From an uncultured delta proteobacterium (GTDB taxonomy: Bacteria > Myxococcota_A > Polyangia > Palsa-1104), in assembly GCA_963785725.1 (NCBI GenBank), contig CAWAWS010000016.1, forward strand, positions 1-64,000: DNA of 64,000 nt, in the 5' to 3' direction. Positions 460-36,614 of this stretch are shown in pieces. Positions within the stretch are counted from its first letter, which is position 1; each line of letters begins with the position of its first letter. The notes beneath the pieces were generated by a model. The model ran no database searches. It was not told the DNA's origin and saw only the letters and a program-made list of their open reading frames with translations. Both the position numbers and the translations under genes were made by a program.

Positions 460-569
460 CTCTTCCTGAGGAGCGGCGCCGCAGGCGACGCGTCTCGAAG
501 GACCAGCGCGCAGCCTCCCCACGGAGCGTCCTTCGAGACGCCGCGCTTCGCGCGGCTCCTCAGGAAGAG
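460..569. repeat. Rhizobial-type intergenic palindromic (REP/RIME-like) doublet
   Basis: CTCTTCCTGAGGAGC...GCGTCTCGAAGGAC and its inverted partner GTCCTTCGAGACGC...GCTCCTCAGGAAGAG; mirror at ~16466-16569. Confidence 0.65.
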
Positions 570-730
570 GGCGGCTTGGGAGTTGCGATGTTGCAGGAAT
601 CGGCGCCTAAGCCATTGAAAACACGGCTTAGCCTACAAAGTTTCACGCCCCGCCGGATCGAGCCCGCCTCGCGAGGAAGCCGTGGACTACTTTACTAGTT
701 ACGGTTGTGTTTGGAGGGCTGGTGGGAGCA

Positions 731-877
731 AAAAATTTGGAATCGCGCGAAAAAGCCTTTTTCCGCCTCGTAACCCCTTGATATTCCCCAAAACCGCCAA
801 AGGAATCTTTGGAAAAATTTGGAGAAACAAGCGGAAAATTTGGAGAAATTTGGCAAAAAGCTTGGAAAAAGCTTGGA
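731..877. repeat. AT-rich intergenic element with iterated (A/C)TTTGG and GCTTGG units
   Basis: Repeated AAATTTGG/TCTTTGG/AAGCTTGG units separated by A-tracts in a GC-rich background; mirror at ~16131-16272. Confidence 0.55.
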
Positions 878-880
878 GGG

Positions 881-1547
881 CTAAAGGCCCTCCGACCTGA
901 ATCGGTAGACCCCGCTGCGCTTGATCTCCGCGTCTTCCAGCGCGCGCGTCACCGGCACGCGGTATTCGGCAATGCATTCGAGCCGATCGCGCGCGAGATA
1001 GGCGCGGCCGGGATCGCCGATCAGAACGTCGGCGCCGCGCGCGGCGAGGCTCTCCAGCCAGGCCGTCGCGGCCTCGGCCATGTCGCGCTGGTAGGAAATG
1101 TCGCCGGCGAGCACGACGTCCCAGCCGTCGTCGCGGCCGATCGAGATCGCCGGCCGCAGCGTCGATCGTGACGCCGTTCTCGCGCGCGTTCATCTCGATC
1201 GCGGTCAGCGCGAAATCGTCGATCTCGCTCGCCTCGACCCGCGCCGCGCCCGCCTTCGCCGCCGCGATCGCGACGAGGCCCGGAGCCGGAGGCGAAATCG
1301 AGCACGAACTTGCCCGCGACCGTCTCCGGCCGCTCGGCGAGGAACGCCGCCAGCGCCTGCCCGCCCGCCCAGGCGAACGCCCAGAACGGCGGCGGCAGGC
1401 CGATCCGCCGAGCTCCTCCTCGGTCTTCTGCCAGAGCGCGACGGCTTCGTCGGCCAGATGCAGGCGCAGCTCCGGCGCCAGCGGCGGCGCGCAGCAGGCG
1501 CGTGTTTTCGAGGATGAACGCGCGCCGATCGCGGATCGCGCGCTCAC
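881..1547 (-). CDS. Class I SAM-dependent protein methyltransferase (PrmA/ETFB-KMT-like), frameshifted
   Basis: PPPFWAFAWAGG, VLDFASGSGLVAIAA and LIGDPGRAYL motifs spread across frames. Confidence 0.75.
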
Positions 1548-2035
1548 GACTTCCAATGCAGCGCCGAAATCAGCGTGAACAGGCGGCGCGCGGTCGGCAT
1601 GTCGATTTCGACCTTGTCGGCGAGCCGCGCGGCCATCAGTTCCGCGCCCTCGTTGTGCAGCGCGGTGCGCTCGCGGTCGATCGCCTCGATCTGCGCGCGG
1701 GCTCGCGGTGCGGATCGCGTTGTAATAGGTCTCGCAGACCAGGAAATAATCCTTCAGCAGCGGCCGGAACGGCGTCATCGAGACGATGAAGTCGGCGACC
1801 GTCTCGCCCGCCTCGTTGCGCACGACGAAGATCAGCTTCGCCTCCTGCTGCGCGATCGTCAGGCTGTAGGGGCCGTCGTCGCGGCCCGATCGCGCCGAAC
1901 GAGTTCTCCTCGACGAGGTCGAAAATCGCGACCGCGCGCTCGTGGTCCTCGTCCGGCGCGACGCGCGGCAGCGTCGCCTCGTCGAGCAGAACCTCGTAGC
2001 AGCCGCTTTCGCGAAGGCGCGGGCTCGGCGCTCAT
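1544..2035 (-). CDS. UPF0262 family protein, frameshifted
   Basis: [50 protein letters not shown]; lies directly after hisD. Confidence 0.75.
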
Positions 2036-3350
2036 CCCGGGCCGTCCCGCGCGAGGCGGATCGCGACCGAGCGCGCGTGCGCGGTCAGACCCTCGGCCTC
2101 GCCGAGCACGATCGCCGACGGGCCCGAGCGCGGCGAGCGACTCGGCGTCGCATTTGAGGATCGAGGTGCGCTTGACGAAGTCGTAGCACGCCGAGCCCGG
2201 AGGAAAACCGCGCCGAGCGCGAAGTCGGCAGCACGTGGTTGGAGCCGCCGACATAGTCGCCGATCGCCTCGGGCGTATAGCGCGCCCGAGGAAGATCGCG
2301 CCGGCGTTGTGGATCGTGCGGCTGATCGCGTCGGCGTCGCGCGCGAGGATTTCGAGATGTTCGGGCGCCAGCCGGTCGACCAGCGGCGTCGCCGCCGCGA
2401 GGCTCGGGCACCAGGATGATCGCGCCGTAGTCGCGCCAGCTCGCGCCCGGCGATTTTCGCGCGCGGCAGCGACGGCGAGCTGGCGCTCGACTTCCTCGCC
2501 GACGGCGCGCGCGAGCGCGGACGTCGTCGGTGATCGAGGATCGATTGCGCGGCCTCGTCGTGTTCGGCCTGCGCGAGCAGATCGGCCGCGACATAGCGCG
2601 GATCGGCGCTGGAATCGGCGAGCACGACGACCTCGGAAGGGCCGGCGATCATGTCGATGCCGACGACGCCGAACACGCGCCGCTTGGCGGCCGCGACATA
2701 GGCGTTGCCCGGGCCGACGATCTTGGCGACCGGCGCGATGCGTCTGCCGTGCCATAGGCGAGCGCGGCGATCGCCTGCGCGCCGCCGACGCGGTAGATTT
2801 CGTCGACGCCGGCGATCCGCGCCGCGGCCAGCACCAGCGGATTGATCCTGCCCGTCCGGCGTCGGCACGACCATCGCGATGCGCGCGCAGCCCGCGACCT
2901 TCGCCGGCGCCGCGTTCATCAGCACCGAGGAGGGATAGCTCGCCGCGCCGCCGGGCACATAGAGCCCGACCGACTCGATCGGCCGCCAGCGCCAGCCGAG
3001 CTCGACGCCGAGCGCATCGACGAAGGCGACGTCGCTGCGGCGCCTGCCGGCGGTGGTAGGCGAGGATGCGCTCGTGCGCGAATTCGCAGCGCCTCGACGG
3101 CCTTGGGGTCGGAGGCGGCGACCGCGGCGTCGATCTCGGCGGCGGAAATGCGAATGCCCTGTCGGGCGAGGTCGACGCGGTCGAAGCGCAGCGAATATTC
3201 CGCCAGCGCCGCGTCGCCGCGCGCGCGCACGTCGGCGATGATCGCCGCGACCGCATCGTCGACGTCGGCCGACGATTCGCGCTTGGCGTTGAGCAGCGCG
3301 ACGAATTCGGCTTCGAAATCGGCCGCGTTCGCGTCGAGAAACACCGCCAT
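2032..3350 (-). CDS. hisD: Histidinol dehydrogenase, frameshifted copy
   Basis: [60 protein letters not shown]. Confidence 0.9.
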
Positions 3351-3375
3351 GGCTACGCGTCTCCTCAGTCTCGCC

Positions 3376-3840
3376 TCAGGGATCATCGGCCTCGGCGCTG
3401 GTCAGCGCATGGCCGGGACAATCGCAGGCCGGCTGGCGCGGCCCGACGTCGCGAAGCTCGGCTTCCAGGCATTCGACCTCCAGCCGCACGATCGCGCCGT
3501 CGGCGAAAGTCAGGAACACCATGCCCGACGGCGGCTCGGTCTTCTCGAAGGTGACGCCGAGCAGGTTCAGCCCGTCGCCCGGCCGCCGTGCCCGCGAGCC
3601 CGAGATGCGAAACGCCGAGCACGCGATCGAAGCGCAGCACCGTGCCGACCCGCTCCTCCAGCCCCGTGCTTGGCGCCGCCCAGTCGTAGCGCATGCCGCG
3701 AGAGCACGAAGCGCTTCTGCTTGGGCAGCCAGGCCATGTCCTCGCGGCGCACGCAGGTATCCTGCACATGCGCCGAGATCACCGCGAGACCCTCGCGGTC
3801 CAGCGCGACCAGCTTCAGCGCGGTGTGCGGACTTCGGCAT
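3376..3840 (-). CDS. DUF2948 family protein, frameshifted
   Basis: [20 protein letters not shown] ... [18 protein letters not shown]; sits between murA and hisD. Confidence 0.75.
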
Positions 3841-3843
3841 GGC

Positions 3844-5135
3844 TCAGCCCGAGACGCGCTCGATGTCGGCGCCGCAGGCGCTGAGCTTGCTGCTCCAGCC
3901 GCTCGAAGCCGCGATCGAGATGATAGACGCGGTTGACCGTGGTTTCGCCCTCGGCCGCGAGCGCGGCGATGACCAGCGAGACCGAGGCGCGCAGATCGGT
4001 CGCCATCACCGGCGCGCCGCGCAGCCGTTCGACGCCGTCGACGATCGCCGTATCGCCCTCGAGCCGGATGTGGGCGCCGAGCCGCGCGAGCTCCTGCACG
4101 TGCATGAAGCGATTTTCGAAGATCGTCTCGGTGATGCGCGAGCGGCCGCGCGCGCGCGTCATCAGCGCCATGAACTGCGCCTGCAGATCGGTCGGGAAAC
4201 CGGGAAACGGCGCGGTCGAAATATCGACCGGCGCGATGCCCGCGCCGTTGCGCTTGACGCGCACGCCGCGATTGTCCGCCGAGACGCTCGCGCCGGCCTG
4301 CGTCGAGCGCGTCGAGCGCCTCCTGGAACAGATCGGCGCCGATGCCTTCGAGCAGCACGTCGCCGCCGGTCATCGCGACCGCGGCGGCGTAGGTGCCCGC
4401 CTCGATGCGATCGGGCAGCACGCAATGGTGGGCGCCGTTGAGGCGCGCGACGCCTGTGACCTCGATCGTCGAGGTTCCCGCGCCCTTGATGCGCGCGCCC
4501 ATCTTGACGAGGCAATCGGCGAGATCCTTCACTTCGGGCTCGCGCGCGGCGTTGCGGATCTGCGTCGAGCCGCGCGCCGTCGCCGCCGCCATCAGCGCGG
4601 TATGGGTGCCGCCGACCGTGACTTTGGGAAATTCGATCTCGCCGCCGACGAGCCCCTTCGGCGCCTTGGCGACGACATAGCCGGCCTCGATCTCGATCTC
4701 CGCGCCGAGCCGCTCCAGCGCCATCAGCAGGAGGTCGACCGGGCGGGTGCCGATCGCGCAGCCGCCGGGCAGCGACACCCGCGCCTCGCCCATGCGCGCC
4801 AGCAGCGGCGCGATGACCCAGAAGCTGGCGCGCATGCGCGAAACGAGTTCGTAGGGCGCGGTGGTGTCGACGATCGTCTTGGCGCGCAGATGCGCGGTCT
4901 GGCCCGCCGCCGCCTGTTCGCCCGGCCGCTTGCCGTCGACGGAATAATCGACGCCGTGATTGCCGAGGATGCGGACGAGCTGGCTGACGTCGGCGAGCCG
5001 CGGCAGGTTCTCCAGCGTCAGCGTCTGGTCGGTCAGCAGCGAGGCGATCATCAGCGGCAGCGCGGCGTTCTTGGCGCCCGAAATCGGAATCGAGCCGTTC
5101 AGCTCGGCGCCGCCGCGAATTTTTATGCGATCCAT
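3844..5135 (-). CDS. murA: UDP-N-acetylglucosamine 1-carboxyvinyltransferase, frameshifted
   Basis: [55 protein letters not shown]. Confidence 0.92.
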
Positions 5136-5139
5136 CCCC

Positions 5140-5334
5140 CCATCCTTCCCCGGTGTCCGCCGGTCGGTTAGCGTCATCGCCGGCCGCGCCCACCGAATTG
5201 GCGCGCCGCGGCTCTTCCCTTGCTGCGCGGCCGCGCTCTTGGCTTTTGCGGCGTTTCAGGTTTTCCCGCAGCGACGCGGCCAACCGTTCCCTCCGCTTAC
5301 GCTCCTGAGCCTCGCGTTCGACGTTCGCGCTCAT
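5140..5334 (-). CDS. Small basic hypothetical protein upstream of murA
   Basis: [30 protein letters not shown]; mirror ORF 11640-11834; 3' end uncertain. Confidence 0.55.
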
Positions 5335-5523
5335 CGAATCCGCCCGAGGAGGCCCCGGCGGCTTGATAGGCCCCCCCGCCAAGGGGGGCAAGTCCCCCGC
5401 GGCCGAGCGTGGGCGGATGGCGGGCGCGCTTCAGGCTTGTCAGAAGGTGCGATCCGCCGCCATCATGGCTTCGGGCGGCGCGCATTTCGCGAGTATCGGT
5501 CCGCCGCATTTTGGAGAAAATGA

Positions 5524-6021
5524 ATGGCCTCCCCTATTTGCACGGCGCTTGTCCTGGTCGCCGCGTCGGCGTCGGCCAACCCGGTTGCGCCCCCGGCCGC
5601 CGCGCCGCTGCCGCCCAGCGGCTCCACGTCCTACACCGCCTATTTCGCCTGCCGGCAGCTCATCGACATCGAAATGGGCAAGATCGGTTCAAATTCCGCG
5701 GCCGAATGCGTCGGCATATCCAAAAACATCGCCGATCCCGGCATGTTCGACAATCTTTCGGTGCGTTGCATCGAGGAGGGCGAGTTCCGGGGGCCGGACG
5801 CCAAATTCAACGGCTGGTGCGCGCAAACGGACGGCGACGGCGACAAATTCTTTACCCACTACACCGGCGGGGACGACGGGCCGGTGACTTACATCGGCGG
5901 GACCGGAAAATACGAGAATGTTTCCATGACGGGAAGCTGGGCGGTACGTGACGCTCCCGCCCTGCCAGCGGGGCAGTTCGCCTTTAGGCTCGAATATAAA
6001 GTCAGCTGGCGGGCAAAGTAG
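5524..6021 (+). CDS. Secreted hypothetical beta-rich protein
   Basis: Signal peptide, several Cys, GGTGKY motif; GGAGA upstream. Confidence 0.75.
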   Translation: MASPICTALVLVAASASANPVAPPAAAPLPPSGSTSYTAYFACRQLIDIEMGKIGSNSAAECVGISKNIADPGMFDNLSVRCIEEGEFRGPDAKFNGWCAQTDGDGDKFFTHYTGGDDGPVTYIGGTGKYENVSMTGSWAVRDAPALPAGQFAFRLEYKVSWRAK

Positions 6022-6049
6022 CTGAGGGGCAGTCGTCGGAGGGGAAGAC

Positions 6050-8059
6050 ATGCCGAAAGACCGGCGGATTAAAGTCGCCATCATCGGCGGCGGCTGCGCG
6101 TCGGTAACGACCGCATTCGAACTCACGCAGCCTATCCATAAAGGAAAATATCAGGTCACGATCTATCAGCTCGGTTGGCGTCTCGGCGGCAAGGGCGCCT
6201 CGGGGCGCGGCCCCGCCGGTCGGATTGAAGAACACGGCCTGCATATCTGGCTCGGCTTCTACGAGAACGCGTTCCGGCTGATGCGGCAATGCTACGAAGA
6301 ACTTGGCCGCGATCCCGAGACATGCCCGATCGCGACGTGGCGGGACGCCTTTTTCGCCGACCCTTACGTCGGCGTAATGGAGCGCTCGCGCTCAGGCGGC
6401 TGGCTGAAATGGCTCGCGCATTTTCCGCCGGCGCCAGGTCTGCCAGGCGATCCGATCCTCGAAAATAATCCCTTCGCGCTTCACAGCTACTTCAGCCGCA
6501 TGATCACCCTTCTGCGAAGCCTGCTGTTTGGCGCCTATACGCGGCAGGCGACCGACGAAGAGGAGGGCGAACCTTCGCCGACAACGTTATCGACGCTGAT
6601 CGCAAAATTGACGGGCCTGTTGAAAGTTGGCGTTCTTTCGACAGCGGCCGGCTTGAGCGAAGCCTTGGGCGTACTCGCTGTCGCCGTCAAATCGGTTCCC
6701 GCATTTCCCGAAAATCTCGTCAGCCGTCTCGTCGATGCCGTCGTCGCCAACATTCGCGAACGGCTGGATTCGCTGGTCGGCACGGACGAGGACATTCGTT
6801 ACAAGAGTGAAGTTATCGATCTCGTGCTCGCGTTCATGACCGGCGCGGTCCGCTTCGGCTTGATGACCGACCCGCGCGGCCTCAGCGCGATCGACGGCTA
6901 CGAATGCCGGGAATGGCTGCGCATGAACGGCGCCTCGGAGCGGTCCCTCAACTCGGCATTCGTGCGCGGCTTGTACGATCTGGCGCTCGCCTACGAGGAT
7001 GGCGATCCGAGCCGCCCAGGGCTTGCCGCGGGCCAGGCGCTGCGCGGGGGGATGCGGATGTTCTTCACATATCGCGGCGCCTTCTTCTGGAAGATGCGAG
7101 CCGGCATGGGCGATTGCGTGTTCGCGCCCTTCTATGAGGTCCTGAAAAAGCGCGGCGTTCGTTTCGAGTTCTTTCATCGGCTCGAGAACGTCAAGCTGTC
7201 CGCGGCCGAAAAGCTCAATCCCGGCGAGCGACCCTATGTCGAAGCTCTGGAGTTCGACGTGCAGGCCCATATCAAGCGCGGAGGCGAATACCGGCCGCTG
7301 ATTCCTGTCGCCGGCGTGCCCTGTTGGCCCTCGACCCCAGATTTCGGCCAGCTCGTCGACGGCGCCCGAATGAAGGAGGAGGATTGGCGGTTCGAATCGC
7401 ACTGGGATCGGCGAAAGATCGAAACCAAGACGTTGCGCGTCACCCGCGACTTCGATTTCGTTGTCCTGGGCGCAAGCGTCGGCGCCGTCCCCTACGTGTG
7501 CCGCGAAATTCTGGAGCGTGATGCCCGCTGGCGCGAAATGGTCGCGAATGTCAAAACCGTCGCCACGCAGGCGTTTCAGATCTGGATGAACGAAGACATG
7601 GCGTCGCTCGGGTGGGTCGATCCGCCGGCCACCTTGTCGGCTTTCGCCAAGCCGTTCGACACCTGGGCCGACATGGGCCACGTGATTGCTTGGGAAGGAT
7701 GGGGCAGGAACCCGAAGTCGGTCGCGTATTTCTGCAACGTGCTCGCCGATCCTCCGGCGCCGCCCGACCGATCGGACACCGAATATGAGGCGCGGCGGCG
7801 CGATGAAGTCAGGCGCAGTGCGGTCGGCTTTCTCAACAACCAGAATTCATCACCTGTGGCCCGGCGCCGTAACGGGGACGGGCCACTTCCAATGGGACCT
7901 CCTAGCGGACCCAAACGAAGCGGGTCGCCAGAAAACTCCCGCAGCCGTCGGCGAAAGCGGATTTTCCTCGCAATACTGGATCGCGAACATCAACCCAACC
8001 GATCGTTACGTCCTGATGCTGCCGGGCACGCTGCGGCACCGAATTTCGCCGCTCGACAA
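6050..8059 (+). CDS. NAD(P)/FAD-binding oxidoreductase (carotene-desaturase-like), truncated at the fold-back centre
   Basis: VAIIGGGCASV Rossmann motif, GWRLGGKGASGR, RIEEHGLHIWLGFYENAF; frameshift near 7845. Confidence 0.8.
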
Positions 8060-8916
8060 CACCTAAATGAACAGCGGAGGCTACGGAACGTGCGGCCTGG
8101 CGGGCGGCTCTGCGACGGCCCCCGCGGCGGCGGACGCGGCTGGGCCGCGGCAAAATCGCGAACGTCGGCCGCGGGCGCCGGCGACGGCCTCCGGCGGGCG
8201 GACGCGGTCTGGGCCGCGGAAAAAATGCGCGGGAAAAAAATCGTCGGCCGGGCGGGCGCGGCGACGGCCGGAGGCGGCCGGGACCGCCGGTCGGCTCCGG
8301 GCTCGGCCCGCTGAACGCGGCGGACCGAGGCGGCTCGGCGCGGACAAGGCTGGGGCAGGAGACGACAGGCCGGCGCTTGAAGAGAAGAGCACGCGGAAAG
8401 TCCCGGCGCGGAGACGCCGCGCAGCGCGGCGGGAGACGGACGGCGGCGGAGGGCGCCGGCGGTCGTGCGCGGAGCCACTCCCGATGGGGAATGGATACAC
8501 CCTCGGCCGTCGGCGGCGTACGCGCGAAGGCCGGGGCGCGCCGAGCAGCACGCGCCACCGGGACGAGAATGAGCGAGGACGCGTCGCTTCAAGTGACGGA
8601 AGGTGGTCATCGGCCCAAGCAGCCCGCGGCGGCGCGCCGAGGGCAGAAGGGGTCAAACGACCCGAGAGAGGGGCGGTCCGGTGGTCCTATCCGCGGAAGG
8701 GCCAACGCGGCGCTCGAGCGGATCGAGGCCCTGGCTCACGAGGAAGTCGGCGGCGACCTTGTCCTCGGCCTCGCGCCAGCGCGCCTTTGTCGGCGTCGGC
8801 TGCCGATCTCTCGAGCGAGCCGCCCGCGATCATGCCGTGGCCGCCGCCGCGGTTGCCGCCGCCTGAGCAGGCTGCTTAGCAATACGTACTCGTAGTCGAA
8901 GAACAGGTAGAAGAAC
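8060..8916. other. Low-complexity, non-coding fold-back spacer (probable base-calling noise) containing an ONT adapter remnant
   Basis: Purine/GC-rich sequence with no credible ORF; AGCAATACGTACTCGTAGTCGAAGAACAGG at 8878-8907 resembles the adapter complement AGCAATACGTAACTGAACGAAGTACAGG. Confidence 0.8.
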
Positions 8917-10923
8917 TTGTCGAGCGGCGAAATTCGGTGCCGCAGCGTGCCCGGCAGCATCAGGACGTAACGATCGGTTGGGTTGATGTTCGCGATCCAG
9001 TATTGCGAGGAAAATCCGCTTTCGCCGACGGCTGCGGGAGTTTTCTGGCGACCCGCTTCGTTTGGGTCCGCTAGGAGGTCCCATCCCAAGTGGCCCGTCC
9101 CCGTTACGGCGCCGGGCCACAGGTGATGAAATTCCGTTGTTGAGAAAGCCGACCGCACTGCGCCTGACTTCATCGCGCCGCCGCGCCTCGTATTCGGCGT
9201 CGGACCGGTCGGCCGGCGCCGGAGGATCGGCGAGCACGTTGCAGAAATACGCGACTGACTTCGGGTTCCCCCCCCATTCTTCTCGCGCGATCACGTGGCC
9301 CATGTCGGCCCAGGTGTCGAACGGTTGGCGAAGGCCGACAAGGTCGCGGGCGGATCGACCCAACCGAGGGAGGCCATGTCTTCGTTCATCCAGATCTGGA
9401 AAGCCTGCGTGGCGACGGTCTTGACATTTGCGACCATCTCGCGCCAGCGGGCGTCGCGCTCCAGAATTTCCCTGCAGATAAAGGGGGCGCCGACACTGGC
9501 GCCCAGAACGACGAAATCGAAATCGCGGGTGACCCGCAACGTCTTGGAGTCTGCCTTGCGTCGATCCCAGTGCGACTCGAACGCCATCCCTCCTGTTTCA
9601 TGCGGGCGCCGTCGACGAGCTGTTCAAAATCCGGTGTCGAGGGCCAGCAGGGCAGGCCCGCGACCGGAAATCAGGGGTTCGAACTCGCGGCCCCGCCTTG
9701 ATCTTGGCCTGAACGTCGAACTCGAGAGCTTCGACATAGGGCTTTTCGCCGGGAGCGAGCTTTTCGGCCGGGGACAGCTTGACGTTCTCGAGCCGATGGA
9801 AGAACTCGAAGCGAACGCCGCGCTTTTTCAGAACCTCATAGAAGGGCGCGAACACGCAGTCGCCCATGCCGGCTCGCATCTTCCAGAAGAAGGCGCCGCG
9901 ATAGGTGAAGAACATCCGCATTTCCCCCGCGCAGCGCCTGGCCCGCGGCAAGCCCCGGGCGGCCGGATCGCCGTCCTCGTAGGCGAGCGCCAGATCGTAC
10001 AAGCCCCGCACGAAAGCCGAGTTGAGGGACCGCTCCGAGGCGCCGTTCATGCGCAGCCATTCCCGGCATTCGTAGCCGTCGATCGCGCTGAGGCCGCGCG
10101 GGTCGGTCATCAAGCCGAAGCGGACCGCGCCGGTCATGAACGCGAGCACGAGATCGATAACTTCACTCTTGTAACGAATGTCCTCGTCCGTGCCGACCAG
10201 CGAATCCAGCCGTTCGCGAATGTTGGCGACGACGGCATCGACAAGACGGCTGACGAGATTTTCGGGAAATGCGGGAACCGATTTGACGGCGACAGCGAGT
10301 ACGCCCAAGGCTTCGCTCAAGCCGGCCGCTGTCGAAAGAACGCCAACTTTCAACAGGCCCGTCAATTTTGCGATCAGCGTCGATAACGTTGTCGGCGAAG
10401 GTTCGCCCTCCTCTTCGTCGGTCGCCTGCCGCGTATAGGCGCCAAACAGCAGGCTTCGCAGAAGGGTGATCATGCGGCTGAAGTAGCTGTGAAGCGCGAA
10501 GGGATTATTTTCGAGGATCGGATCGCCTGGCAGACCTGGCGCCGGCGGAAAATGCGCGAGCCATTTCAGCCAGCCGCCTGAGCGCGAGCGCTCCATTACG
10601 CCGACGTAAGGGTCGGCGAAAAAGGCGTCCCGCCACGTCGCGATCGGGCATGTTTCGGGATCGCGGCCAAGTTCTTCGTAGCATTGCCGCATCAGCCGGA
10701 ACGCGTTCTCGTAGAAGCCGAGCCAGATATGCAGGCCGTGTTCTTCAATCCGTCCGGCGGGGCCGCGCCCCGAGGCGCCCTTGCCGCCGAGACGCCAACC
10801 GAGCTGATAGATCGTGACCTGATATTTTCCTTTATGGATAGGCTGCGTGAGTTCGAATGCGGTCGTTACCGACGCGCAGCCGCCGCCGATGATGGCGACT
10901 TTAATCCGCCGGTCTTTCGGCAT
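8917..10923 (-). CDS. Mirror copy of the NAD(P)/FAD oxidoreductase, frameshifted and truncated
   Basis: N-terminal ~315 aa identical to the 6050 ORF, then fragments in several frames. Confidence 0.75.
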
Positions 10924-10950
10924 GTCTTCCCCTCCGACGACTCCCCTCAG

Positions 10951-11448
10951 CTACTTTGCCCGCCAGCTGACTTTATATTCGAGCCTAAAGGCGAACTGCC
11001 CCGCTGGCAGGGCGGGAGCGTCACGTACCGCCCAGCTTCCCGTCATGGAAACATTCTCGTATTTTCCGGTCCCGCCGATGTAAGTCACCGGCCCGTCGTC
11101 CCCGCCGGTGTAGTGGGTAAAGAATTTGTCGCCGTCGCCGTCCGTTTGCGCGCACCAGCCGTTGAATTTGGCGTCCGGCCCCCGGAACTCGCCCTCCTCG
11201 ATGCAACGCACCGAAAGATTGTCGAACATGCCGGGATCGGCGATGTTTTTGGATATGCCGACGCATTCGGCCGCGGAATTTGAACCGATCTTGCCCATTT
11301 CGATGTCGATGAGCTGCCGGCAGGCGAAATAGGCGGTGTAGGACGTGGAGCCGCTGGGCGGCAGCGGCGCGGCCGCCGGGGGCGCAACCGGGTTGGCCGA
11401 CGCCGACGCGGCGACCAGGACAAGCGCCGTGCAAATAGGGGAGGCCAT
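10951..11448 (-). CDS. Mirror copy of the secreted hypothetical protein
   Basis: Translation identical to 5524-6021. Confidence 0.75.
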   Translation of the reverse strand: MASPICTALVLVAASASANPVAPPAAAPLPPSGSTSYTAYFACRQLIDIEMGKIGSNSAAECVGISKNIADPGMFDNLSVRCIEEGEFRGPDAKFNGWCAQTDGDGDKFFTHYTGGDDGPVTYIGGTGKYENVSMTGSWAVRDAPALPAGQFAFRLEYKVSWRAK

Positions 11449-11639
11449 TCATTTTCTCCAAAATCTGGCGGACCGATACTCGCGACATGCGCGCCGGCCC
11501 GCAGCCATGATGGCGGCGGATCGCACCTTCTGACAAGCCTGAAGCGCGCCCGCCATCCGCCCACGCTCGGCCGCGGGGGACTTGCCCCCCTTGGCGGGGG
11601 GGCCTATCAAGCCGCCGGGGCCCTCCTCGGGCGGAGTCG

Positions 11640-13588
<1,949 letters not shown>

Positions 13589-13628
13589 TTGAATACCTTG
13601 GGCCAAAGTTTTTGGAAGACGCGGAGCC

Positions 13629-14934
13629 ATGGCGGTTCTTCTCGACGCGAGCGCGCCCGATTTCGAGGCCGATTCGCCGCGCTGCTCGGCGCCAAGCGCG
13701 AATCGGCCGAGGACGTCGACAAAGCGGTCGCCGCGATACTTCCCGACGTGCGGGCGCGAGGCGACTCCGCGCTCGCCGAGTATTGCCAAAAATTCGACCG
13801 CGTCGACCTCGCCGCAACTGGGCCTGCGCATTTCCACTGCAGAGATCGAGGCCGCGGTCGCCGCCGCCGACCCGAAGCGGTGAAGGCGCTCGAATTCGCC
13901 CACGAGCGCATCCTCGCCTATCACCGCCGGCAGACCCCGCAGAGACGTCGCCTTCGTCGATGCGCTCGGCGTCGAGCTGGGCTGGCGATGGCGCGCGATC
14001 GAGGCGGTCGGGCTTTATGTTCCCGGCGGCGCCGCGAGCTATCCCTCATCGGTGCTGATGAACGCGGCGCCGGCGAAGGTCGCGGGCTGCCCGCGCATCG
14101 CGATGGTCGTGCCGACGCCGGGCGGTCATATCAACCCGCTGGTGCTGGCGGCGGCGCGCATCGCCGGCGTCGATGAGATCTACCGCGTCGGCGGCGCGCA
14201 GGCGATCGCGGCGCTGGCCTTCGGCACTCAGACCATCAAGCCGGTCGCAAAGATCGTCGGCCCCGGCAACGCCTATGTCGCGGCGGCGAAGCGCCGCGTG
14301 TTCGGGATTGTCGGCATCGACATGATCGCGGGCCCTTCCGAGGTTGTCGTGATCGCCGATTCCACCGCCGACCCTCGCTATGTCGCCGCCGATCTGCTCG
14401 CGCAGGCCGAACACGACGAGGCCGCGCAGTCGATCCTGATCACCGACGATTCTTCGCTCGCGCGCGCGGTCGGCGCGGAGGTCGAAGCGTCAACTCGCGT
14501 TGCTGCCGCGGGAAAAAATCGCGGGCGCGAGCTGGCGCGATTACGGCGCGATCATCTTCGTTCCAAGCCTCGCGGCGGCGACGAAACTGGTTGACCGGCT
14601 GGCGCCCGAACATCTCGAAATTATTGCGCGCGACGCCGAAGCGATCAGCGAAACAATCAACAACGCCGGCGCGATTTTCCTCGGCGCCTATACGCCGGAG
14701 GCGATCGGCGACTATGTCGGCGGCTCCAACCACGTGCTGCCGACCTCGCGCTCGGCGCGGTTTTCCTCCGGGCTCGGCGTCTATGATTTTGTCAAGCGCA
14801 CCTCGATCCTCAAATGCGACGCGAAATCGCTTGCGGCGCTGGGCCCGGCGGCGATCACGCTCGGCGAGGCGGAGGGCCTCAGCGCCCACGCGCGCTCGGT
14901 TTCGATCCGTCTTGCTCGGGACGGCCCGGAATGA
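13629..14934 (+). CDS. hisD: Histidinol dehydrogenase (mirror, frameshifted)
   Basis: [37 protein letters not shown]. Confidence 0.9.
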
Positions 14935-15421
14935 ACGGCGAACCCGCCGCGCCGTCGCGAAAGCGGCTCTACGAAGTTCTGCTCGATGAGGCGACGCTGC
15001 CGCGCGTCTCGCCGGATGCGGATCACGAGCGGGCGGTCGCGATCTTCGATCTCGTCGAGGAAAACAGCTTCGGCGCCCCGGCCGCGACGACGGCCCCTAC
15101 AGTCTGACGATTGCGCAGCAGGAGGCCAAGCTGAGCTTCGTCGTTCGCAACGAAAGCGCCGAGACGGTCGCCGATTTCGTCGTCTCGATGACGCCGTTTC
15201 GCCCGCTGCTGAAGGATTATTTCCTGGTTTGCGAAACCTATTTCGCCGCCATCCGCACCGCCAGCCCCCGCGAGATCGAGACGATCGATCGCGAGCGAAC
15301 GTCTTTGCACAACGAGGGCGCCGAACTGATGGCGACGCGGCTCGCCGACAAGGTCGAGATCGACATGCCGACCGCGCGCAGGCTGTTCACGCTGATTTCC
15401 GCGCTGCATTGGAAGTCGTGA
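14931..15421 (+). CDS. UPF0262 family protein (mirror)
   Basis: [34 protein letters not shown]...ALHWKS. Confidence 0.75.
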
Positions 15422-16080
15422 GCGCGATCCTCGATCGGCGGAAGTTCATCGAACAAAACACGCGGCTTTTGCGCCCTCCGCTCGCGCCGCATCTGAAGCT
15501 TTATCTCGCCGACGAAGCCGTCGCGCTTTGGCAGAAGACCGAGGAGGAACTGGGCGAGATCGGCCTGCCGCCGCCGTTCTGGGCCTTCGCCTGGGCGGGC
15601 GGGCAGGCGCTGGCGCAAATACATCGCGGAGCGCCCGGAAATGGTCGCGGGCAAAAGCGTGCTCGATTTCGCCTCCGGCTCCGGCCTGGTCGCGATCGCC
15701 GCGGCCAAGGCGGGCGCGGCGCGCGTCGAGGCGAGCGAGATCGACGATTTCGCGCTGACCGCGATCGCAATGAACGCGCGCGAGAACGGCGGTCGCGATT
15801 CTGCCTCGCGCCGGCGATCTGATCGGCCGCGACGAGGGCTGGGAGGTCGTGCTCGCCGGCGACATTTCCTACCAGCGCGACATGGCGGAAGCGGCGACCG
15901 CCTGGCTCGAGACGCTCGCGGCGCGCGGCGCGGAGGTCTTTATCGGCGATCCCGGCCGCACCTATCTCGCGCGCGAGCGCTCGAATGCGTCGCCGAATAT
16001 CCGTGCCGGTGACGCGCGCGCTGGAGGATGCGGAGATCAAGCGGTCGGGGGTGTACCGGTTTCGGTCCGCTCGCTCATAG
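15418..16080 (+). CDS. SAM-dependent methyltransferase (mirror, frameshifted)
   Basis: LPPPFWAFAWAGG, VLDFASGSG, IGDPGRTYL. Confidence 0.75.
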
Positions 16081-17041
16081 GCGCGAGTTTTGTTCATGTT
16101 TTGTTTCACGTGAAACAGTTTTGCCGCTCCAAATTTTCCAAGCTTTTTGCCAAATTTCTCCAAATTTTCCGCTTGTTTCTCCAAATTTTTCCAAAGATTC
16201 CTTTGGCGGTTTTGGGGAATATCAAGGGGTTACGAGGCGAAAAAAGCATTTTGCGCGATTCCAAATTTTTTTGCCTCCACACACAACCATAACTAGTAAA
16301 ACAGCGCCGGATCGACCTGACGTGGACAGCAACTGCCAAGCCGGCTTCCTCGCGAGGCGGGCTCGATCCGGCGGGGCGTGAAACTTTGTAGGCTGCGCCG
16401 TGTTTTCAACGGCTTAGGCGCCGATTCCTGCAACATCGCAACTCCCAAGCCCTCTCCTGAGGGCCCTCTTCCTGAGGCGCCGCGCGAAGCGCGGCGTCTC
16501 GAAGGACGCTCCGTGGGGAAGCTGCGCGCTGGTCCTTCGAGACGCGATGCTGCGCATCGCTCCTCAGGACGAGGCGGTGGGGCGCGCCGGCTTTTGTGGG
16601 GATCGCCTTGGGAGTTACGCAACTCGCGCATTTTCCGACGATTTCCAAATTTCCAGCGGTGTTAGGCCGTCTTCATCACCAAGGCGGCAGACTAACACAG
16701 ATTCTGCTTTTCCGGAAGAGATTTCGCCAAATTGGAAAAACAACCCGAAAGGAGCGCTTGCTCACGCAGATGTGAGCGCCGGTCTTGGGCCTGCGGGTGA
16801 AACATCGGCGCGGCTCGTACGTAAGGAGAGGGATCGCCTGCCGGCGCGTCCCCGCGGCGCACCCGTAACCATGGGCCAGGTAGACCGCCCGTAGAAGCGC
16901 TTTTATTTTTTTCCGATCCTCGGAGGGAAATCCAAATGAACGCTAAGATAGCCCTGACCACCGCTGCTCTGCTCGGTTCCATCGCCGGCGCCCTCGTCGT
17001 GGGCTCGGCCGCGCCCGCAGCCTCCGCCCAAAGCGGCGCCT

Positions 17042-18811
17042 GCCGGTCACATCGTTCGAGAACACGCTGTAGACGCCGAGGCCCTCGGCGTGGTGCGCCT
17101 GCACGCCGTCCGCGACTTTGTACGACGGATAGCCGTCATGACCTTGCGCCGCCATCCACGAGCCCTGATCCGGCGGATCGTACGGCATCTCCGACTGATA
17201 GAAGTAGACGGCGCCGCGCTCGCCGTTCCACAGCGTCTGATACTGCTGGAAATGCTCGACGAACAGGCCGTAGACGGTGACGTCGGCGCCGTTGACGATG
17301 ATGCCGTTGTTGCTCGGGTTCGCGGTCCAGCCGGCAGTGCCGTTGTTGTTGTCGTGATCGGCGCGCCACAGCCACGTGTTGTCGACGATGACGTGGTTGC
17401 TGTTGACGGTGACGCAGCTCGACGTCTTGCCGGTGACGGCGCCGCCGATGCGGCAGTGCACGTCGAAGACGACGGTCGGCGCTGCCGTGTGATCGGCCGA
17501 GCTGCCCGTCGGTCCGAGCTCGAGCAGCGTCGTCGAGTTGGTCGCGCCCGCTTCGAGCACGAAGCCGGCCAGCGTCACGTTGTCGACGTCGGCGACGTCG
17601 ATGAGGTCGTTGCCCTTGTCCGCCGTCAACGTCGAGATGCCGAGCCCGAGGATGATCGTATTGGGCGCGTTGACCACGAGCGCGCTGTCCAAGTGATATT
17701 CGCCCGGCGTCAAGAGCAGGTGTTTGCCTTGCGCCAGCGCCGCGTTCAAGGTCGTCGCCGTATCGGTGTCGGCTTTGGCGACGTAGAAGCGATCGATCGA
17801 CAGCGGGCTGCCCGGCGGCGTGCCGTCGCCCCAGCTGTGCCCTTGGCTATTCGTCTTCAGATTGGGCACCATGACGAGGTAATTCCCGGCGTCGTCGAGA
17901 TAGAGGAACGGCTTTTCGCGCACGAGCGGCGTCGAATCGGCGACGGTATAGGGCGGATTGGGCCAATTGTCGCCGCTCGGCGCGTTGGGATCGCCGACGA
18001 AGACCATGTTCCAGTTCTGCCCAGTCCAGTTTTGATCGTTGTTGCGCGTGACGAACTGCTGCTGCGTGCCCGAGTTGATGTTGCCGTCGACGAGCGAGTC
18101 GACGATGAAGCCGCCCGACGACCAGCCGCCGTCGTCGAGGTTGATGTCGCCTTTGATGTGCATGCGCCGTAAATGCGTGCCTTGCGAGACGGCCCAGACG
18201 TCGACGTTGTTGTCCTGCGTCGGCGTGACGGCGAGGTTTTCGGCGCCGCGCCAGAAGTTGCACGTCGCGTTCTGGCCGCCGAGCCAGTCGGCCTTGGCGC
18301 GGACGGCGCCGGTGATCGCCGTGTCGTCGGGCGACTTGCCGAGCCCGAGCACGTGCGTGTAGAAGCCGACTTTGACGTCGACCTGATATTGGCCGGGCTT
18401 GAAGAAGTAGGCGTAGCGGCCGTCGCCGAACTGCGCCCCGTCCTGCTGGTTGTAGACGTTGTCGAGCTGCCCCTGGATGTCGCTCATCGCCATGGACGGG
18501 TCGAAGATGAGCACGTTGGGGCCGAAGTCGGGCGCGGCGCCGCCGTTGCCGCCGCCGCATTCGGGCGTGACGGTCCAGCTGGGCGGGCAATTGGCCGTCG
18601 AGCCGCCGCCGCCGCCGGCCGCGCCACCGCCGCCGCCGGCGTTGCCGCCGCCCGTGCCGCCGCCGCCGGCGCTGTTGCCGCCGCCGCTGCCGCCGCCACC
18701 GCCGGACATCGTGATCTTGGACGAGCTGCACGCCGACGCTGCCAGCGACAGCCACAGCGCGTAATGGCCGCAGCGCCCGAACGAACGCTTATTGAGGTTG
18801 GTCATCATCAT
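17042..18811 (-). CDS. GH55-like exo-beta-1,3-glucanase lipoprotein, C-terminally truncated at the chimeric junction
   Basis: Lipobox ASAC, Gly linker, PDFGPNVLIFDP, QFGDGRYAYFFKPG, ATCNFWRGAEN, WAVSQ, WLWRADH, GLFVEHFQ, FYQSEMPYDPP. Confidence 0.8.
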
Positions 18812-19947
18812 TACTGCTCCAGATAGCCGGCGAGCAGCGAGTACCAAGTCGCGCCGGCGGGAGAGATGTCATTGGCGTTGAGGAACACGCTGTCGTCGGG
18901 CCAGATGGCGACGGCGCGGAATCCGTAGGCGTTGACGGCGTCGAGGGCGCCGCCGGCGAAGACGTTGGTGCCGCCGTTGCCGCCGACGGGCGAGATGAGG
19001 CCGATGCTGACGTTGGCGGGCGGCAAGTCGCACATGACGTCGAGGCCGCCGGCGAACGTGCTGCTGCAGTCGATCTGATCCTGGAAGCCCGACGGGCAGC
19101 CGCTCGCGTTCGGGCTGCCGAGCGCGCCCGCGTAGTCTTCCAAGATGGCCCAGTCGACGCTGGCGGCGAGCGTCTTCAAGTCGACGAAGCCGTTGCCGCC
19201 CGAGTCGGTGCACTGCTGGACGTACCAGCCGCCGAGGTCGAGCGAGACGGTCAACCCTTGGGCATGCAGCGCGTCGCGGAACTTGGCGAGGAAGCTGTTG
19301 AGCTGGTCGCTGAGCGAGTGGCCGAGGTTCTGCACTTCCCAGTCGAGGTTGTAGCCGTCCCAGCCGTAAGTCGCGGCGTCGGCGAGCATCGAGGTGATGA
19401 AGCTCTGCTGCGCGCCGGGCGGCGAATCGGTGATGACGTTCTGGATGCCGGTGTCGACGCCGCTGTTGCCGGCGCCGGCGTAGACGAGCGGGATGCACTT
19501 CAGCCCCGCGGCGTGGATCTTCTGCGCGATTTGCGCGGGCGACAGGCCATCGAAGCTGGAGCTCAAGAGCTGCGCCGGGCCCGAGGTATAGGCGTAGTTG
19601 AGCTGATAGAGCGCCGGGCTGACTTGCGTGAAGCTCGGCGAATGCTGCGCCACCGTCGTCAGCGTGTTGCTGAAGTCCTGCCAGACCCAGACGAGGGACT
19701 GCTTGGGCGGCGGGCCGAGGTCGGGCGGGCTCGTCATGCCGCCGTCGTCGGCGCCGGCGCCGCCGTCAGTCGGATCGGTCGTGCCGCCGCCGCCGGCGCT
19801 GCCGCCGCCGGCAGTGCCACCGCCGCCTGCCGGCGCGCCGCCGCCGCCGGCACCGCCGCCGCTGTGGCTCTTGTTCGACGAGCAGCCGATCGCGCCCGCG
19901 AGCAGCGCGCACAAAGCCCAGGTGAAACGCCGTTGCCGTTGTCCCAT
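18811..19947 (-). CDS. GH18 chitinase-like lipoprotein
   Basis: Lipobox AIGC, Gly linker, DxxxxDxE catalytic motif WDGYNLDWE; stop overlaps the GH55 start. Confidence 0.7.
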   Translation of the reverse strand: MGQRQRRFTWALCALLAGAIGCSSNKSHSGGGAGGGGAPAGGGGTAGGGSAGGGGTTDPTDGGAGADDGGMTSPPDLGPPPKQSLVWVWQDFSNTLTTVAQHSPSFTQVSPALYQLNYAYTSGPAQLLSSSFDGLSPAQIAQKIHAAGLKCIPLVYAGAGNSGVDTGIQNVITDSPPGAQQSFITSMLADAATYGWDGYNLDWEVQNLGHSLSDQLNSFLAKFRDALHAQGLTVSLDLGGWYVQQCTDSGGNGFVDLKTLAASVDWAILEDYAGALGSPNASGCPSGFQDQIDCSSTFAGGLDVMCDLPPANVSIGLISPVGGNGGTNVFAGGALDAVNAYGFRAVAIWPDDSVFLNANDISPAGATWYSLLAGYLEQ

Positions 19948-20404
19948 GGGCGAGACACTTAGCAGCCGGCACGCCAACTCGCGGCTGACGCAATTGGCCA
20001 GCGAGCGCGGAATTCGACGGCGCAAAAGTGCGGACGAAAAGCCTCAGGCGTCCATGCGCGGTTTACAGTGGCGGCGGCTAAACACGCGGAAACCGAGTCC
20101 GCGTTTGCCGTCGCTGCGGTCTATTGCAGCTCCTGTGCGAAGGCGCTAGCGGGGGACGAAATTCTCATGGGGCTGCCAGACTCAGCTCCGGTACGCGGAC
20201 GACGTGCGTGGTGGTTGCCCTGCGGCGGCGGCGCACGGGCATCCGGTGGATGCGTGCGCCGCCGCTCCGCCGGAATCGGCCATCGTTGGATCGGGCCACG
20301 CCCGTGGGAGGGTTATTTCGGGCGTACGCGGCCTGCACCCACGCGCGCCCCCAACAGCGGCCGATCGCACGCACACGTTTGATGTCGCGCTCGATCGTGG
20401 CGGG

Positions 20405-22210: not shown

Positions 22211-23449
22211 CTAGCGAACGACTTTGAGCAGGCGGGCGCGGGTCGCCGGCAGCGGATCGGGCGCGTCGAGCGGCTCCACGACAATCGCGAACGCGCCGTT
22301 GTCGAAGGGCGTGCCCGGCGCGCGCTCGGTGCGGACGAGCCGTTCGCGCAGCTGCCGGCGCGCCAACGTGCGCGCGCGAAAGTGACAATACGGGTTGTTG
22401 CCGGGGCGGCCGAAGAGCGAGTGCGCCGTGAACGTGCAGCCGCCTTTGCAGACCTCGGCGAACGAGCAGGTGCGGCAAAAGCCCCACAAATCGTCGACCG
22501 TGCGTTCGCGGTTGAAGGCGATGGCGCTCGTGTCGTCGTTCCAGATCGTGGCCAGGTCGCGCTCGCGTAAGTTGCCGCCGACGTAATGTTTCGTCTGCAG
22601 CGACGGGCAACCTTTGACGGCGCCGTCGGACTCGATGCCCATGACGTAGCGGCCGGCCTGGCAGCCTTGCCAATGCTCGTCGCCGCTGGCGTCGGGCGAG
22701 CGCAGGCGGCCCTCTTCGGGCCCGAAATAGCCCAAGTTGTTGCCGGGCATCACGAGGATGCCGTCGGCGAAGGCGCGCTCTTTGAGCTGCGCGAGGCGTG
22801 GCACGAGGTCGAGCAAGTCCCACGGCTGCAAGAGCATGTCGGGGCGATCGGCGGCGCGACCGAGCGGCACCGTCAGCTGCACCTGCCACGACGAGATGCC
22901 GAGCGAACGCAGCTGATCGTAGAGCGGCTCGAGATCGTCGCGATTGAGGCGATTGACGTTGGTGTTCGCCGCCGTGCGAATGCCGGCGCGGCGCAGATGG
23001 CCGAGCGCGGCGACGGCGGCGTCGAACCCGCCCGGCGTCGCGCGCTGGAGGTCGTGGCTGGGCCGCAGGCCGTCGATGCTCACCGACGCCAAGTAGAGGC
23101 CGGCGGACGCCATCTTCGTCGCCATCGCGGCGTCGAGGCGGCGTCCGCCGGTGGTCATCGTCGGGCGAATGCCGGCGGCTTTGAGCGCGGCGATGATGTC
23201 GAGAAAGCCCGCGTGCAAGTAGGCTTCACCGCCGATGAGCACGACCTCTTTGGCGCGCATTTGCCGCAGCTCGCCGACGACGCGCAAGGCCTCCGCCGTC
23301 GACAGCTCGCCGTCGCGCGCGTCGCCGGCGCGCGAGCCACAGTGCGTGCACAGCTGGTCGCAGGCGAGCGTCAGCTCCCACACGACGTACGCCGGCCGAT
23401 AGTCGTTGCCGACGACCTGCAGGCGGCGATGAACGCGCGCGCCGGCCAC
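22211..23449 (-). CDS. Radical SAM/SPASM peptide maturase, PlpX (splicease)-like
   Basis: WELTLACDQLCTHCGSRAG (CxxxCxxC), LIGGE, WQVQLTVPLGRAAD, PGNNLGYFGP, SPASM Cys (GCQAG, GCPSL, CRTCSFAEVCKGGC, GNNPYCH), PFDNG tail; GTG start 2 nt after the precursor stop. Confidence 0.9.
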   Translation of the reverse strand: MAGARVHRRLQVVGNDYRPAYVVWELTLACDQLCTHCGSRAGDARDGELSTAEALRVVGELRQMRAKEVVLIGGEAYLHAGFLDIIAALKAAGIRPTMTTGGRRLDAAMATKMASAGLYLASVSIDGLRPSHDLQRATPGGFDAAVAALGHLRRAGIRTAANTNVNRLNRDDLEPLYDQLRSLGISSWQVQLTVPLGRAADRPDMLLQPWDLLDLVPRLAQLKERAFADGILVMPGNNLGYFGPEEGRLRSPDASGDEHWQGCQAGRYVMGIESDGAVKGCPSLQTKHYVGGNLRERDLATIWNDDTSAIAFNRERTVDDLWGFCRTCSFAEVCKGGCTFTAHSLFGRPGNNPYCHFRARTLARRQLRERLVRTERAPGTPFDNGAFAIVVEPLDAPDPLPATRARLLKVVR

Positions 23450-23451
23450 GC

Positions 23452-23760
23452 CTATTGTCCGCCGTCGGGATTGCCGAGGCCGGCGTCGGGATCGTGCGCG
23501 ACCACGGGCGTCATATCGACGGGCACGGACATGTCGGGCGCGGGCGGCTCGAGCTCGCGGCAGCCGTTCTTGTCGCTGACGCAGGGACTGCCGTAGCAGG
23601 CCATGAGCGTCATCGACATGGTGCCGAGGCCGATGAAGCCGAGTATCTTGAAGAGGCGGCGGCTGATGACGCTCGGTCCCTTGGCGGCGCAGTTGGGGCA
23701 ATGCGACGCGGACGCGATCATGAAGCCCGAGCAGTGACGGCAGCGATTCATTAGTTTCAT
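23452..23760 (-). CDS. Putative rSAM substrate: zinc-ribbon + lipoprotein signal + CYG motif peptide
   Basis: CRHC...HCPNC, then RR + hydrophobic stretch, LMA-CYGSPC, Pro/Asp tail; GGAGG upstream. Confidence 0.8.
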   Translation of the reverse strand: MKLMNRCRHCSGFMIASASHCPNCAAKGPSVISRRLFKILGFIGLGTMSMTLMACYGSPCVSDKNGCRELEPPAPDMSVPVDMTPVVAHDPDAGLGNPDGGQ

Positions 23761-23782
23761 GTGCGGTTGGATCCTCCGCGGC

Positions 23783-23805
23783 GCTGTATAGCAAGCGAAG
23801 GGCCA
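23783..23805 (-). promoter_or_regulatory. Candidate promoter of the precursor/rSAM operon (sigma54-like, or extended -10)
   Basis: Minus strand TGGCCCTTCGCTTGCT (GG-N10-GC) overlapping TGCTATACA, ~30 nt before the ATG. Confidence 0.45.
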
Positions 23806-35855: not shown

Positions 35856-36614
35856 ATGCATCCCGAGCTCGCTCGCTTCACCGCATTCGGCGTCGAACGA
35901 GCGATCTATTCCTACGGAGTCTTCGTCCTCCTCGGCGTCGCCAGCGGTCTCACCATTGCCGTCTGGCGTGCCCGCGGCGAGCAGCTCCTGCGCTTCGACG
36001 TGCTCGCCGCCGGCCTCTTCGCGGTCGCCGGCGGCCTCGTCGGCGGCGTCCTCCTCTACATCGCGGTGCACGTGCCGCTCTTCGTCGCCGATCCGGGGCT
36101 GTTGTTGCAGCCGGGCCTCGTCTTTTACGGCGGGCTCATCGGCGGCGCCGGCGCGGCCGCGCTCTACTGTCGCGGCTACGCCGTGCCGTTGCCGCGCGTC
36201 GCCGACGCCGCCGCGCCCGGCCTGGCGTTCGGCCACGCGCTCGGCCGCGTCGGCTGCTTGCTCGGCGGTTGCTGCTACGGCCGCGTCGTCGCGCCGTCGT
36301 TCCCTCTCGCCGTCGAGCTCGCCGGCGCCACCCGCCATCCCGTGCAGCTCTACGAAGCGGCCGGCCTCCTCGTCATCGCCGCCGTGACCTCGCTCTTGCC
36401 GCGGCAACACAAGGGCGCCATCTTTACGGTGTATCTCGGCCTCTACGCCGTCTTGCGCCTGGCCACCGAGCGCTTTCGCGGGGACGACTTCGAACGCAGC
36501 GCCATCGTGCGCGGCTCGTCGACGTCGCAGCTCATCGCCGCCGTCATGCTCGTCGCTGCCGTCGCGCTCGTCTTTCACCTGTATCGGCCTTCGAATCGGA
36601 AAGGAGCGGCCTAA
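35856..36614 (+). CDS. lgt: Prolipoprotein diacylglyceryl transferase family
   Basis: YSYG, GLVFYGG, GRVGCLLGGCCYG, RHPVQLYE, ERFRGD. Confidence 0.8.
   Translation: MHPELARFTAFGVERAIYSYGVFVLLGVASGLTIAVWRARGEQLLRFDVLAAGLFAVAGGLVGGVLLYIAVHVPLFVADPGLLLQPGLVFYGGLIGGAGAAALYCRGYAVPLPRVADAAAPGLAFGHALGRVGCLLGGCCYGRVVAPSFPLAVELAGATRHPVQLYEAAGLLVIAAVTSLLPRQHKGAIFTVYLGLYAVLRLATERFRGDDFERSAIVRGSSTSQLIAAVMLVAAVALVFHLYRPSNRKGAA

Follow-up and report, generated by a model that had tools for sequence, protein, structure and literature searches.

Within the window, by which we mean the whole 64,000-nucleotide stretch of myxobacterial DNA analysed here, two minus-strand genes encode a small precursor protein and, after an intergenic gap of 2 nt, a radical SAM/SPASM enzyme. 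The initial annotation had described this two-gene unit, and the ORF coordinates (22211-23449 and 23452-23760) bear it out. The features of the locus are as follows.

22211..23449, minus strand: radical SAM/SPASM enzyme of the PlpX (splicease) clade, 412 aa from an inferred GTG start
23452..23760, minus strand: precursor of 102 aa (translation), with zinc ribbon, signal-II-like helix, lipobox Cys55, Tyr56-Gly57 and Pro/Asp tail
23689..23742, minus strand: zinc ribbon C7-C24, predicted splicease-docking module (profile matches, hhalign, complex model)
23599..23661, minus strand: RR then hydrophobic helix, residues 34-54 (sequence and lipobox-pattern test in homologues)
23590..23607, minus strand: lipobox L-M-A-C55 overlapping the predicted splice site C55-Y56-G57 (homologue counts)
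23455..23589, minus strand: C-terminal cargo with C60, C67 and an acidic Pro/Asp tail (translation)
23773..23777, minus strand: GGAGG, likely ribosome-binding site of the precursor, 12 nt 5' of its ATG

Third-position GC of the two ORFs is 0.89 and 0.87. Because the tetranucleotide composition of the locus is genome-typical and a genome of the same genus holds a 74%-identical copy of it, we judge that it is no assembly artefact; it also lies outside the suspect first 17 kb of the window. That region (1-17041) is an imperfect palindrome with arms of ~8 kb at 87-91% identity and a centre near 8500, shows a raised tetranucleotide distance and carries DUF2948, UPF0262 and a histidinol dehydrogenase gene broken across frames. 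The appearance is that of foreign DNA, which we take to be alphaproteobacterial, folded back in a long read and joined to the contig start, and the contents of the region are suspect. Two tandem lipoprotein-like genes with Gly-rich linkers lie at 16943-20025, one with a weak GH18 match and the second with no Pfam match.

Scans for promoters and terminators at the splicease locus gave results at chance level, and the RNA search returned one soil metatranscriptome (share 0.06), whose fragments were mostly <90% identical and provide no evidence of expression. The flanking acyl-CoA synthetase, FAD monooxygenase, TetR and MFS genes were rejected as pathway members, since none recurs among the fetched loci. 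By-eye inspection of the window locus showed no Y-like ORF. The initial annotation had remarked on a missing RRE partner; no PqqD gene indeed lies near this locus or near its paralog in the genome, but such a lack is normal outside cyanobacteria, according to the account in PMC11414181.

The enzyme matches PF04055 and PF13186 and has a CxxxCxxC motif at residues 30-37 and seven SPASM cysteines. The five splicease motifs named in the initial annotation, WQVQLTVPLG, PGNNLGYFGP, GCPSL, GNNPYCH and PFDNG, are all present (at residues 188, 235, 280, 350 and 381), and by-eye comparison with Table S3 of PMC11414181 finds all of them in PlpX, PcpX and RhaX. Against family profiles the enzyme scored 451.8 bits for TIGR04103 (cut-off 725), 403 bits for TIGR03913 (cut-off 591.75) and 135 bits for TIGR04133 (cut-off 425), under the cut-off in each case; the best unrelated family reached 145.8 bits, against more than 400 for TIGR04103 and TIGR03913. 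The match to TIGR03913 stops at model position 396 of 477, and the enzyme has no C-terminal zinc ribbon. Pairwise identity is 44-46% with TIGR03913 enzymes of Azospirillum and 47% with a Nostoc enzyme that bears the TIGR04103 annotation and has a Nif11 precursor on one side and a Y-like ORF on the other. Family searches at the window locus gave no match to a Nif11 or a DUF1843 precursor. TIGR04133, which we take to be a SPASM enzyme paired with a lipoprotein of partner family TIGR04134, resembles the window locus in being named as lipoprotein-paired, but the window enzyme matches it at only 135 bits, and TIGR04134 matched none of 64 precursor N-termini among the matches listed. The earlier placement in the splicease clade is borne out by family profiles, identity to the Nostoc enzyme and shared motifs, at scores under the family cut-offs; judged by its sequence, the enzyme would work like a splicease, yet it belongs to none of TIGR04103, TIGR03913 and TIGR04133.

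Among solved structures, which include no splicease, the closest to the enzyme is SkfB, and in the ESM Atlas only Myxococcota clusters were matched, at 0.91-0.92. The clade of the window enzyme is well supported in a careful tree (100/99), with deeper branching unsettled. In a quick tree, enzymes with CYG and non-CYG precursors are intermingled in one clade. The quick tree alone also nested the type I and DUF1843 enzymes within the ribbon-lipoprotein enzymes, an arrangement that the careful tree, with its unstable root, does not settle (AU p 0.227), and we therefore claim no direction of evolution.

We searched all 107,847 six-frame ORFs of the genome with a profile of the precursor and obtained only two full-length matches, both directly upstream of a splicease homologue. 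One belongs to the window locus and the other to the genome's one enzyme paralog, which is 65% identical and has its ribbon precursor directly upstream. In this second pair (L093, C39:453267-454808) the lipobox Cys stands nine residues before HYG, and the pair offers a natural control for experiments. Among the 80 best of 123 homologous loci, 69 have a precursor within 3 kb of the enzyme; 36 of the 69 had seeded the precursor profile and 33 were found independently. Relative to the enzyme, 77 precursor ORFs are arranged upstream in tandem (37), head-to-head (31) or downstream (9). In 41 related genomes, for each of which the best 150 candidates were scored, the enzyme occurs in 11 and a precursor profile match in 11, with 10 genomes shared and 29 having neither; one enzyme-bearing genome has precursors that the profile missed, and one fragmented genome gives a partial match only. 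Across the phylum, 53 of 201 genomes carry an enzyme homologue, while non-myxobacterial spliceases were sampled via five plasmid records only. In three genomes the enzyme stands without a neighbouring precursor, and CYG precursors occur at other sites that lack an enzyme inside 1.5 kb. Because the loci are related, the counts are not independent. The pairing of precursor with enzyme far exceeds chance, and the gene pair is real and spread across many Myxococcota. At one further locus (L091, G021:C101), which is possibly a decaying pair, a single TAG stop interrupts the splicease homologue, next to which lies a large ribbon-lipoprotein that has a CxxCH motif and no YG within the first 75 residues after the Cys.

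Translation of the precursor confirms the anatomy first reported for it: a CxxC-type ribbon (C7, C10, C21 and C24), R34-R35, a hydrophobic stretch, the run L52-M53-A54-C55-Y56-G57, which holds the sole YG of the protein, and a Pro/Asp tail. In the family alignment C7, C10, C21, C24, Y56 and G57 are invariant; YG had been required of the seed sequences. The pattern scan covered 123 loci, those left of 132 fetched once three duplicates and six reference loci had been set aside; 94 of them yielded 109 precursor ORFs, every one with a Cys in the stretch between ribbon and YG. A lipobox pattern like PROSITE PS00013, which also allows Asn at -1, was matched by 103 of the ORFs, against a mean of 6.5 and a maximum of 14 after shuffling, a control that is lenient because a hydrophobic stretch had been demanded of the ORFs at selection. 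The matched Cys lies directly before YG in 68 precursors and 3-96 residues before it in 35, the remaining 6 being missed by the pattern; LMAC occurs in 57 of the 109. Cys as X is the main subtype of precursors and not the rule. The proposal that YG sits at the lipobox Cys thus stands in so far as YG is conserved and C-Y-G occurs in 68/109, but fails for the 35/109 with the Cys apart, including the genome's own paralog.

Another way to view the association is to select ORFs by ribbon and lipobox, leaving YG out of the selection. This gave 109 ORFs, with a YG within 75 residues in 105 and directly after the Cys in 70, compared with 56 and 0, respectively, for the 609 ordinary lipoprotein-like ORFs of the genome. 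Across the family the residue at X may be C, V, L, A, M, P, H or another, and YG is fixed. We consider splicing at YG likely. A different reading is that the precursor is a lipoprotein on which the enzyme, when X is Cys, performs other Tyr-radical chemistry, for example cross-linking Cys to Tyr or cleaving the backbone. The enzyme is only 47% identical to a type I enzyme, scores under the cut-offs and sits in a separate clade (100/99), and a thiol beside the radical site could divert the radical. Against this, X varies while YG does not, enzymes of CYG and non-CYG precursors are mixed in one clade and all splicease motifs are retained, and we consider such a diversion improbable.

Lipoprotein signals usually lie at the very N-terminus, with the Cys within about 35 residues. 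Cys55 of the precursor lies far beyond this range, and in nearly all homologues the lipobox Cys is found at residues 43-77. Met at -2 is rare in this genome (6 of the 609 lipoprotein-like ORFs), which suggests that TLMAC is conserved for more than lipidation. The 35 of 109 precursors with a linker between Cys and YG have ordinary boxes, for example LAGC and VAGC, and the twin precursors of locus L001 differ in form, one reading LSAC-YG and the other AVGC-x5-YG, so that the Cys is retained when it is not X. This conservation of the Cys independently of the splice site favours a real lipobox. The RR and helix (residues 34-54) are likely to form an internal signal peptide II or a signal anchor, and the genome has matches to at least six Lgt, two LspA and one Lnt; one of the Lgt paralogs lies within the window (35898-36575), with no link to the splicease locus shown. 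From these patterns we regard lipidation of the precursor family as probable, whereas the chances that both modifications fall on the same Cys appear evenly balanced.

The late position of the Cys, at residue 55, and the LMAC box, atypical for the genome, could be read as signs that the CYG subtype is spliced and not lipidated. Cys55 would then serve as X only, the helix would be an uncleaved signal anchor or recognition helix, the ribbon would stay cytoplasmic and the ketoamide would lie at the membrane surface. Known splice sites also have hydrophobic residues ahead of X, and a ketoamide at +1 could keep Lgt or LspA from acting. We think this unlikely in view of the 35/109 precursors that keep a lipobox Cys, in ordinary LAGC or VAGC boxes, apart from YG, and of the L001 twins, which switch between forms; furthermore, MNIO-modified DAG-RiPPs, as described in PMC13056109, are a case in which cytoplasmic modification precedes lipidation. 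Since the splice site overlaps the lipobox in 68/109 precursors, splicing might alternatively act as an anchor switch, with spliced and lipidated pools competing, or with the thioether beta to the ketone being eliminated to give lipid release or an enone. The diversity of folded cargo domains would suit a switch, and the elimination chemistry is conceivable. The Cys-linker-YG subtype, however, cannot operate in this way, and we consider this reading decidedly improbable.

The product had been pictured as a membrane-anchored lipopeptide. The conserved lipobox Cys speaks for the anchor, but precursors range from 62 aa (an incomplete ORF) to 451 aa and frequently carry folded C-terminal domains, so that 'lipoprotein' is the better term. 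The C-terminal cargo after YG varies freely between homologues and includes PF11617 and DUF4215 domains, MopE-like motifs (27/109 precursors) and myxobacterial Cys-rich motifs (8/109), the last two of which we take to be envelope domains. At L044:4337-5689, L056:4262-5332, L058:4274-5350 and L140, ribbon-LMACYG heads are fused to Cys/Asp-rich repeat proteins of 300-450 aa, and the splice tag can therefore front full-size proteins. Precursors of the linker subtype at L105, L108, L123, L127, L130 and L145 have 3-5 XYG repeats in acidic tails, at times with several precursors in tandem.

We compared the N-termini of 64 precursors with NCBIfam, and of its 18,950 families TIGR03913 was the one most often matched (18/64, best E 2.4e-6), the window's own precursor not being among the matching N-termini. 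The matches fall on model positions 425-465, which correspond to the C-terminal tail of the TIGR03913 enzyme. Such a C-terminal ribbon is present on 4/131 enzymes. Two of them have DUF1843 precursors and the other two a look-alike or a weak DUF1843 match; none of the four is paired with a ribbon precursor, and two further Azospirillum enzymes fit the same ribbon-tail/DUF1843 pattern. No locus among those examined has the ribbon on both partners: either the enzyme or the precursor carries it. The presence of a homologous ribbon on the C-terminus of DUF1843-type enzymes, and its absence from their precursors, is new here. Profiles of the precursor ribbon and the enzyme-tail ribbon aligned at 95.8% in hhalign. 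When ranked with 872 generic ribbon-like stretches, 4/6 enzyme ribbons outrank all generic ones and two rank 31st and 42nd; with the reverse, enzyme-tail profile, 47 of the top 50 matches are precursors, the window ribbon scoring 6.1 bits (rank 159) and the paralog ribbon -0.5 bits. Given the ranks of 31st and 42nd and the low reverse scores of the window and paralog ribbons, the homology is uneven. The helix that follows the enzyme-tail ribbon showed no significant likeness to a Nostoc Y-like ORF (probability 0.9%, E 0.058). In two genomes of the same order (G033 and G034, at loci L095 and L096, respectively) there is also a second type of splicease, which carries a C-terminal ribbon and has upstream of it a longer protein that closes with a DUF1843-like YG segment.

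When the enzyme was modelled in complex with zinc and residues 1-38 of the precursor, the score was 0.79, compared with 0.39 for the best of three controls; a control in which an unrelated protein replaced the enzyme scored 0.39. The mark for this score, reached by 116/157 solved and 2/215 mismatched pairs, is only roughly valid here. Contacts agreed to at least 88% between runs, with a partner pLDDT of at least 71, and place G12, F13, P22 and N23 of the ribbon against F242-G247, H259 and F357 of the enzyme, residues that are conserved on both sides. A single-sequence fold of a ribbon-fused enzyme was too low in pLDDT (42) for use. The suggestion in the initial annotation that the ribbon serves as recognition element is thus supported by homology to the TIGR03913 tail, by hhalign and by the predicted docking. 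It could instead be a generic zinc sensor or folding aid, like the TIGR03913 tail by convergence, a view compatible with the other alternatives above. Family members match generic DZR-type Pfam families too and the control ranks are uneven. The restriction of the ribbon to one partner or the other, the 47 of 50 precursors among the reverse-profile matches and the complex model at 0.79 point away from such a generic role, which we regard as unlikely.

We are fairly confident that the ribbon binds the enzyme, and it likely plays the role of PlpY or of a leader. PlpY and the RhaA leader are described in PMC11414181 as activators that still function when fused to the C-terminus of their enzymes, and a module found on the substrate head or on the enzyme tail fits this activator logic. 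The ribbon is a well-supported new lead on enzyme-substrate recognition. If the interpretation is correct, it would join PlpY and the leader helix as a third kind of splicease activator, offer a tag of ~25 residues with which to install ketoamides in proteins and, if portable, be the natural counterpart of engineered splicease-leader fusions.

In the scheme that we propose, the zinc-loaded ribbon would dock in the cytoplasm on F242-G247, H259 and F357 of the enzyme, replacing PlpY or the leader helix, and the PlpX-clade enzyme would excise tyramine at C55-Y56-G57 to leave a ketoamide. The helix would then insert as an internal signal peptide, routing the precursor through Sec; Lgt would add diacylglycerol to the thiol of Cys55, LspA would remove ribbon and helix together, and Lnt would acylate the amine. 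As this route also removes the leader, a dedicated protease or exporter would not be needed. The product would be an envelope-anchored ketoamide, speculatively most likely a protease-reactive group; inhibition of proteases by it is a speculation by analogy with the tested spliceotides of PMC11626197. For the scheme as a whole, with splicing at CYG, docking of the ribbon and then export and lipidation on Cys55, we put belief and doubt on a par. Our literature search found no paper in which Cys is accepted as X, or in which Lgt or LspA accept a ketoamide at +1.

The locus is a variant of the spliceotide systems, and one that extends phylum-wide. It shares enzyme motifs, cysteine pattern and an XYG in the adjacent precursor with the type I systems PlpXYA and PcpXYA (TIGR04103), but in place of their Nif11 leader and Y protein it has a ribbon and a lipoprotein-type signal. 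The binary type II systems RhaXA, RcsXA and RasXA, as presented in PMC11414181 and PMC11626197, likewise consist of two genes, have no Y protein and supply the enzyme-binding element from the precursor N-terminus; this element is a helix in those systems and, by prediction, a zinc ribbon in the window precursor. RhaA as printed in PMC11414181 has no hydrophobic signal or lipobox, unlike the window precursor. The TIGR03913/DUF1843 systems, with their GDL motif, have a homologous enzyme and a homologous zinc ribbon, but their enzyme carries the ribbon as its C-terminal tail and acts with a precursor that is a small, soluble and helical peptide.

RiPP-lipoprotein hybrids have already been published as DAG-RiPPs, with a different enzyme family (Chen et al., PNAS 2026, PMC13056109). 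DybA and NedA are, in that account, likewise modified in the cytoplasm and then processed by Sec, Lgt, LspA and Lnt with no dedicated protease or exporter, as we propose for the window system; their enzymes, in contrast, are MNIOs that act away from the lipid Cys. The main text of PMC13056109 does not contain 'radical SAM', 'rSAM' or 'splice', and it expects leader-independent or follower systems, whereas the window precursor has a folded leader ahead of its signal. The ribbon-lipoprotein spliceotide systems are probably also DAG-RiPPs, and if so would bring radical SAM enzymes into that class, along with precursors whose signal peptide is preceded by a folded leader. More broadly, we tentatively suggest, at somewhat less than even chances, that Myxococcota make phylum-wide spliceotide-lipoprotein hybrids, with splicing and lipid on the same Cys, proteins of up to ~450 aa and portable ribbon targeting on the substrate or the enzyme tail.

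We found no description of a zinc-ribbon lipoprotein spliceotide in the literature, a comparison to which Scott et al. 2022 is external. That screen, as summarised in PMC10849128, covered 3,418 enzymes, with 189 genera and 27 confirmed pairs reported, and its breadth means that the myxobacterial ribbon loci may well appear in its catalogue. According to the review in PMC9811515, the end products of spliceotide pathways had remained elusive in native hosts; if the products are membrane-bound lipoproteins, they would be overlooked in extracts. Cultured hosts (Sorangium, Polyangium and Pyxidicoccus) make a direct search for the product possible, and a ketoamide fixed in the envelope of a predator would suggest protease protection or covalent capture. 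Outside the phylum, a splicease-clade enzyme with no visible precursor lies amid kinase, trypsin-like and M23 peptidase genes on a plasmid of Tropicibacter oceani (L100), and in the quick tree it clusters with the myxobacterial enzymes.
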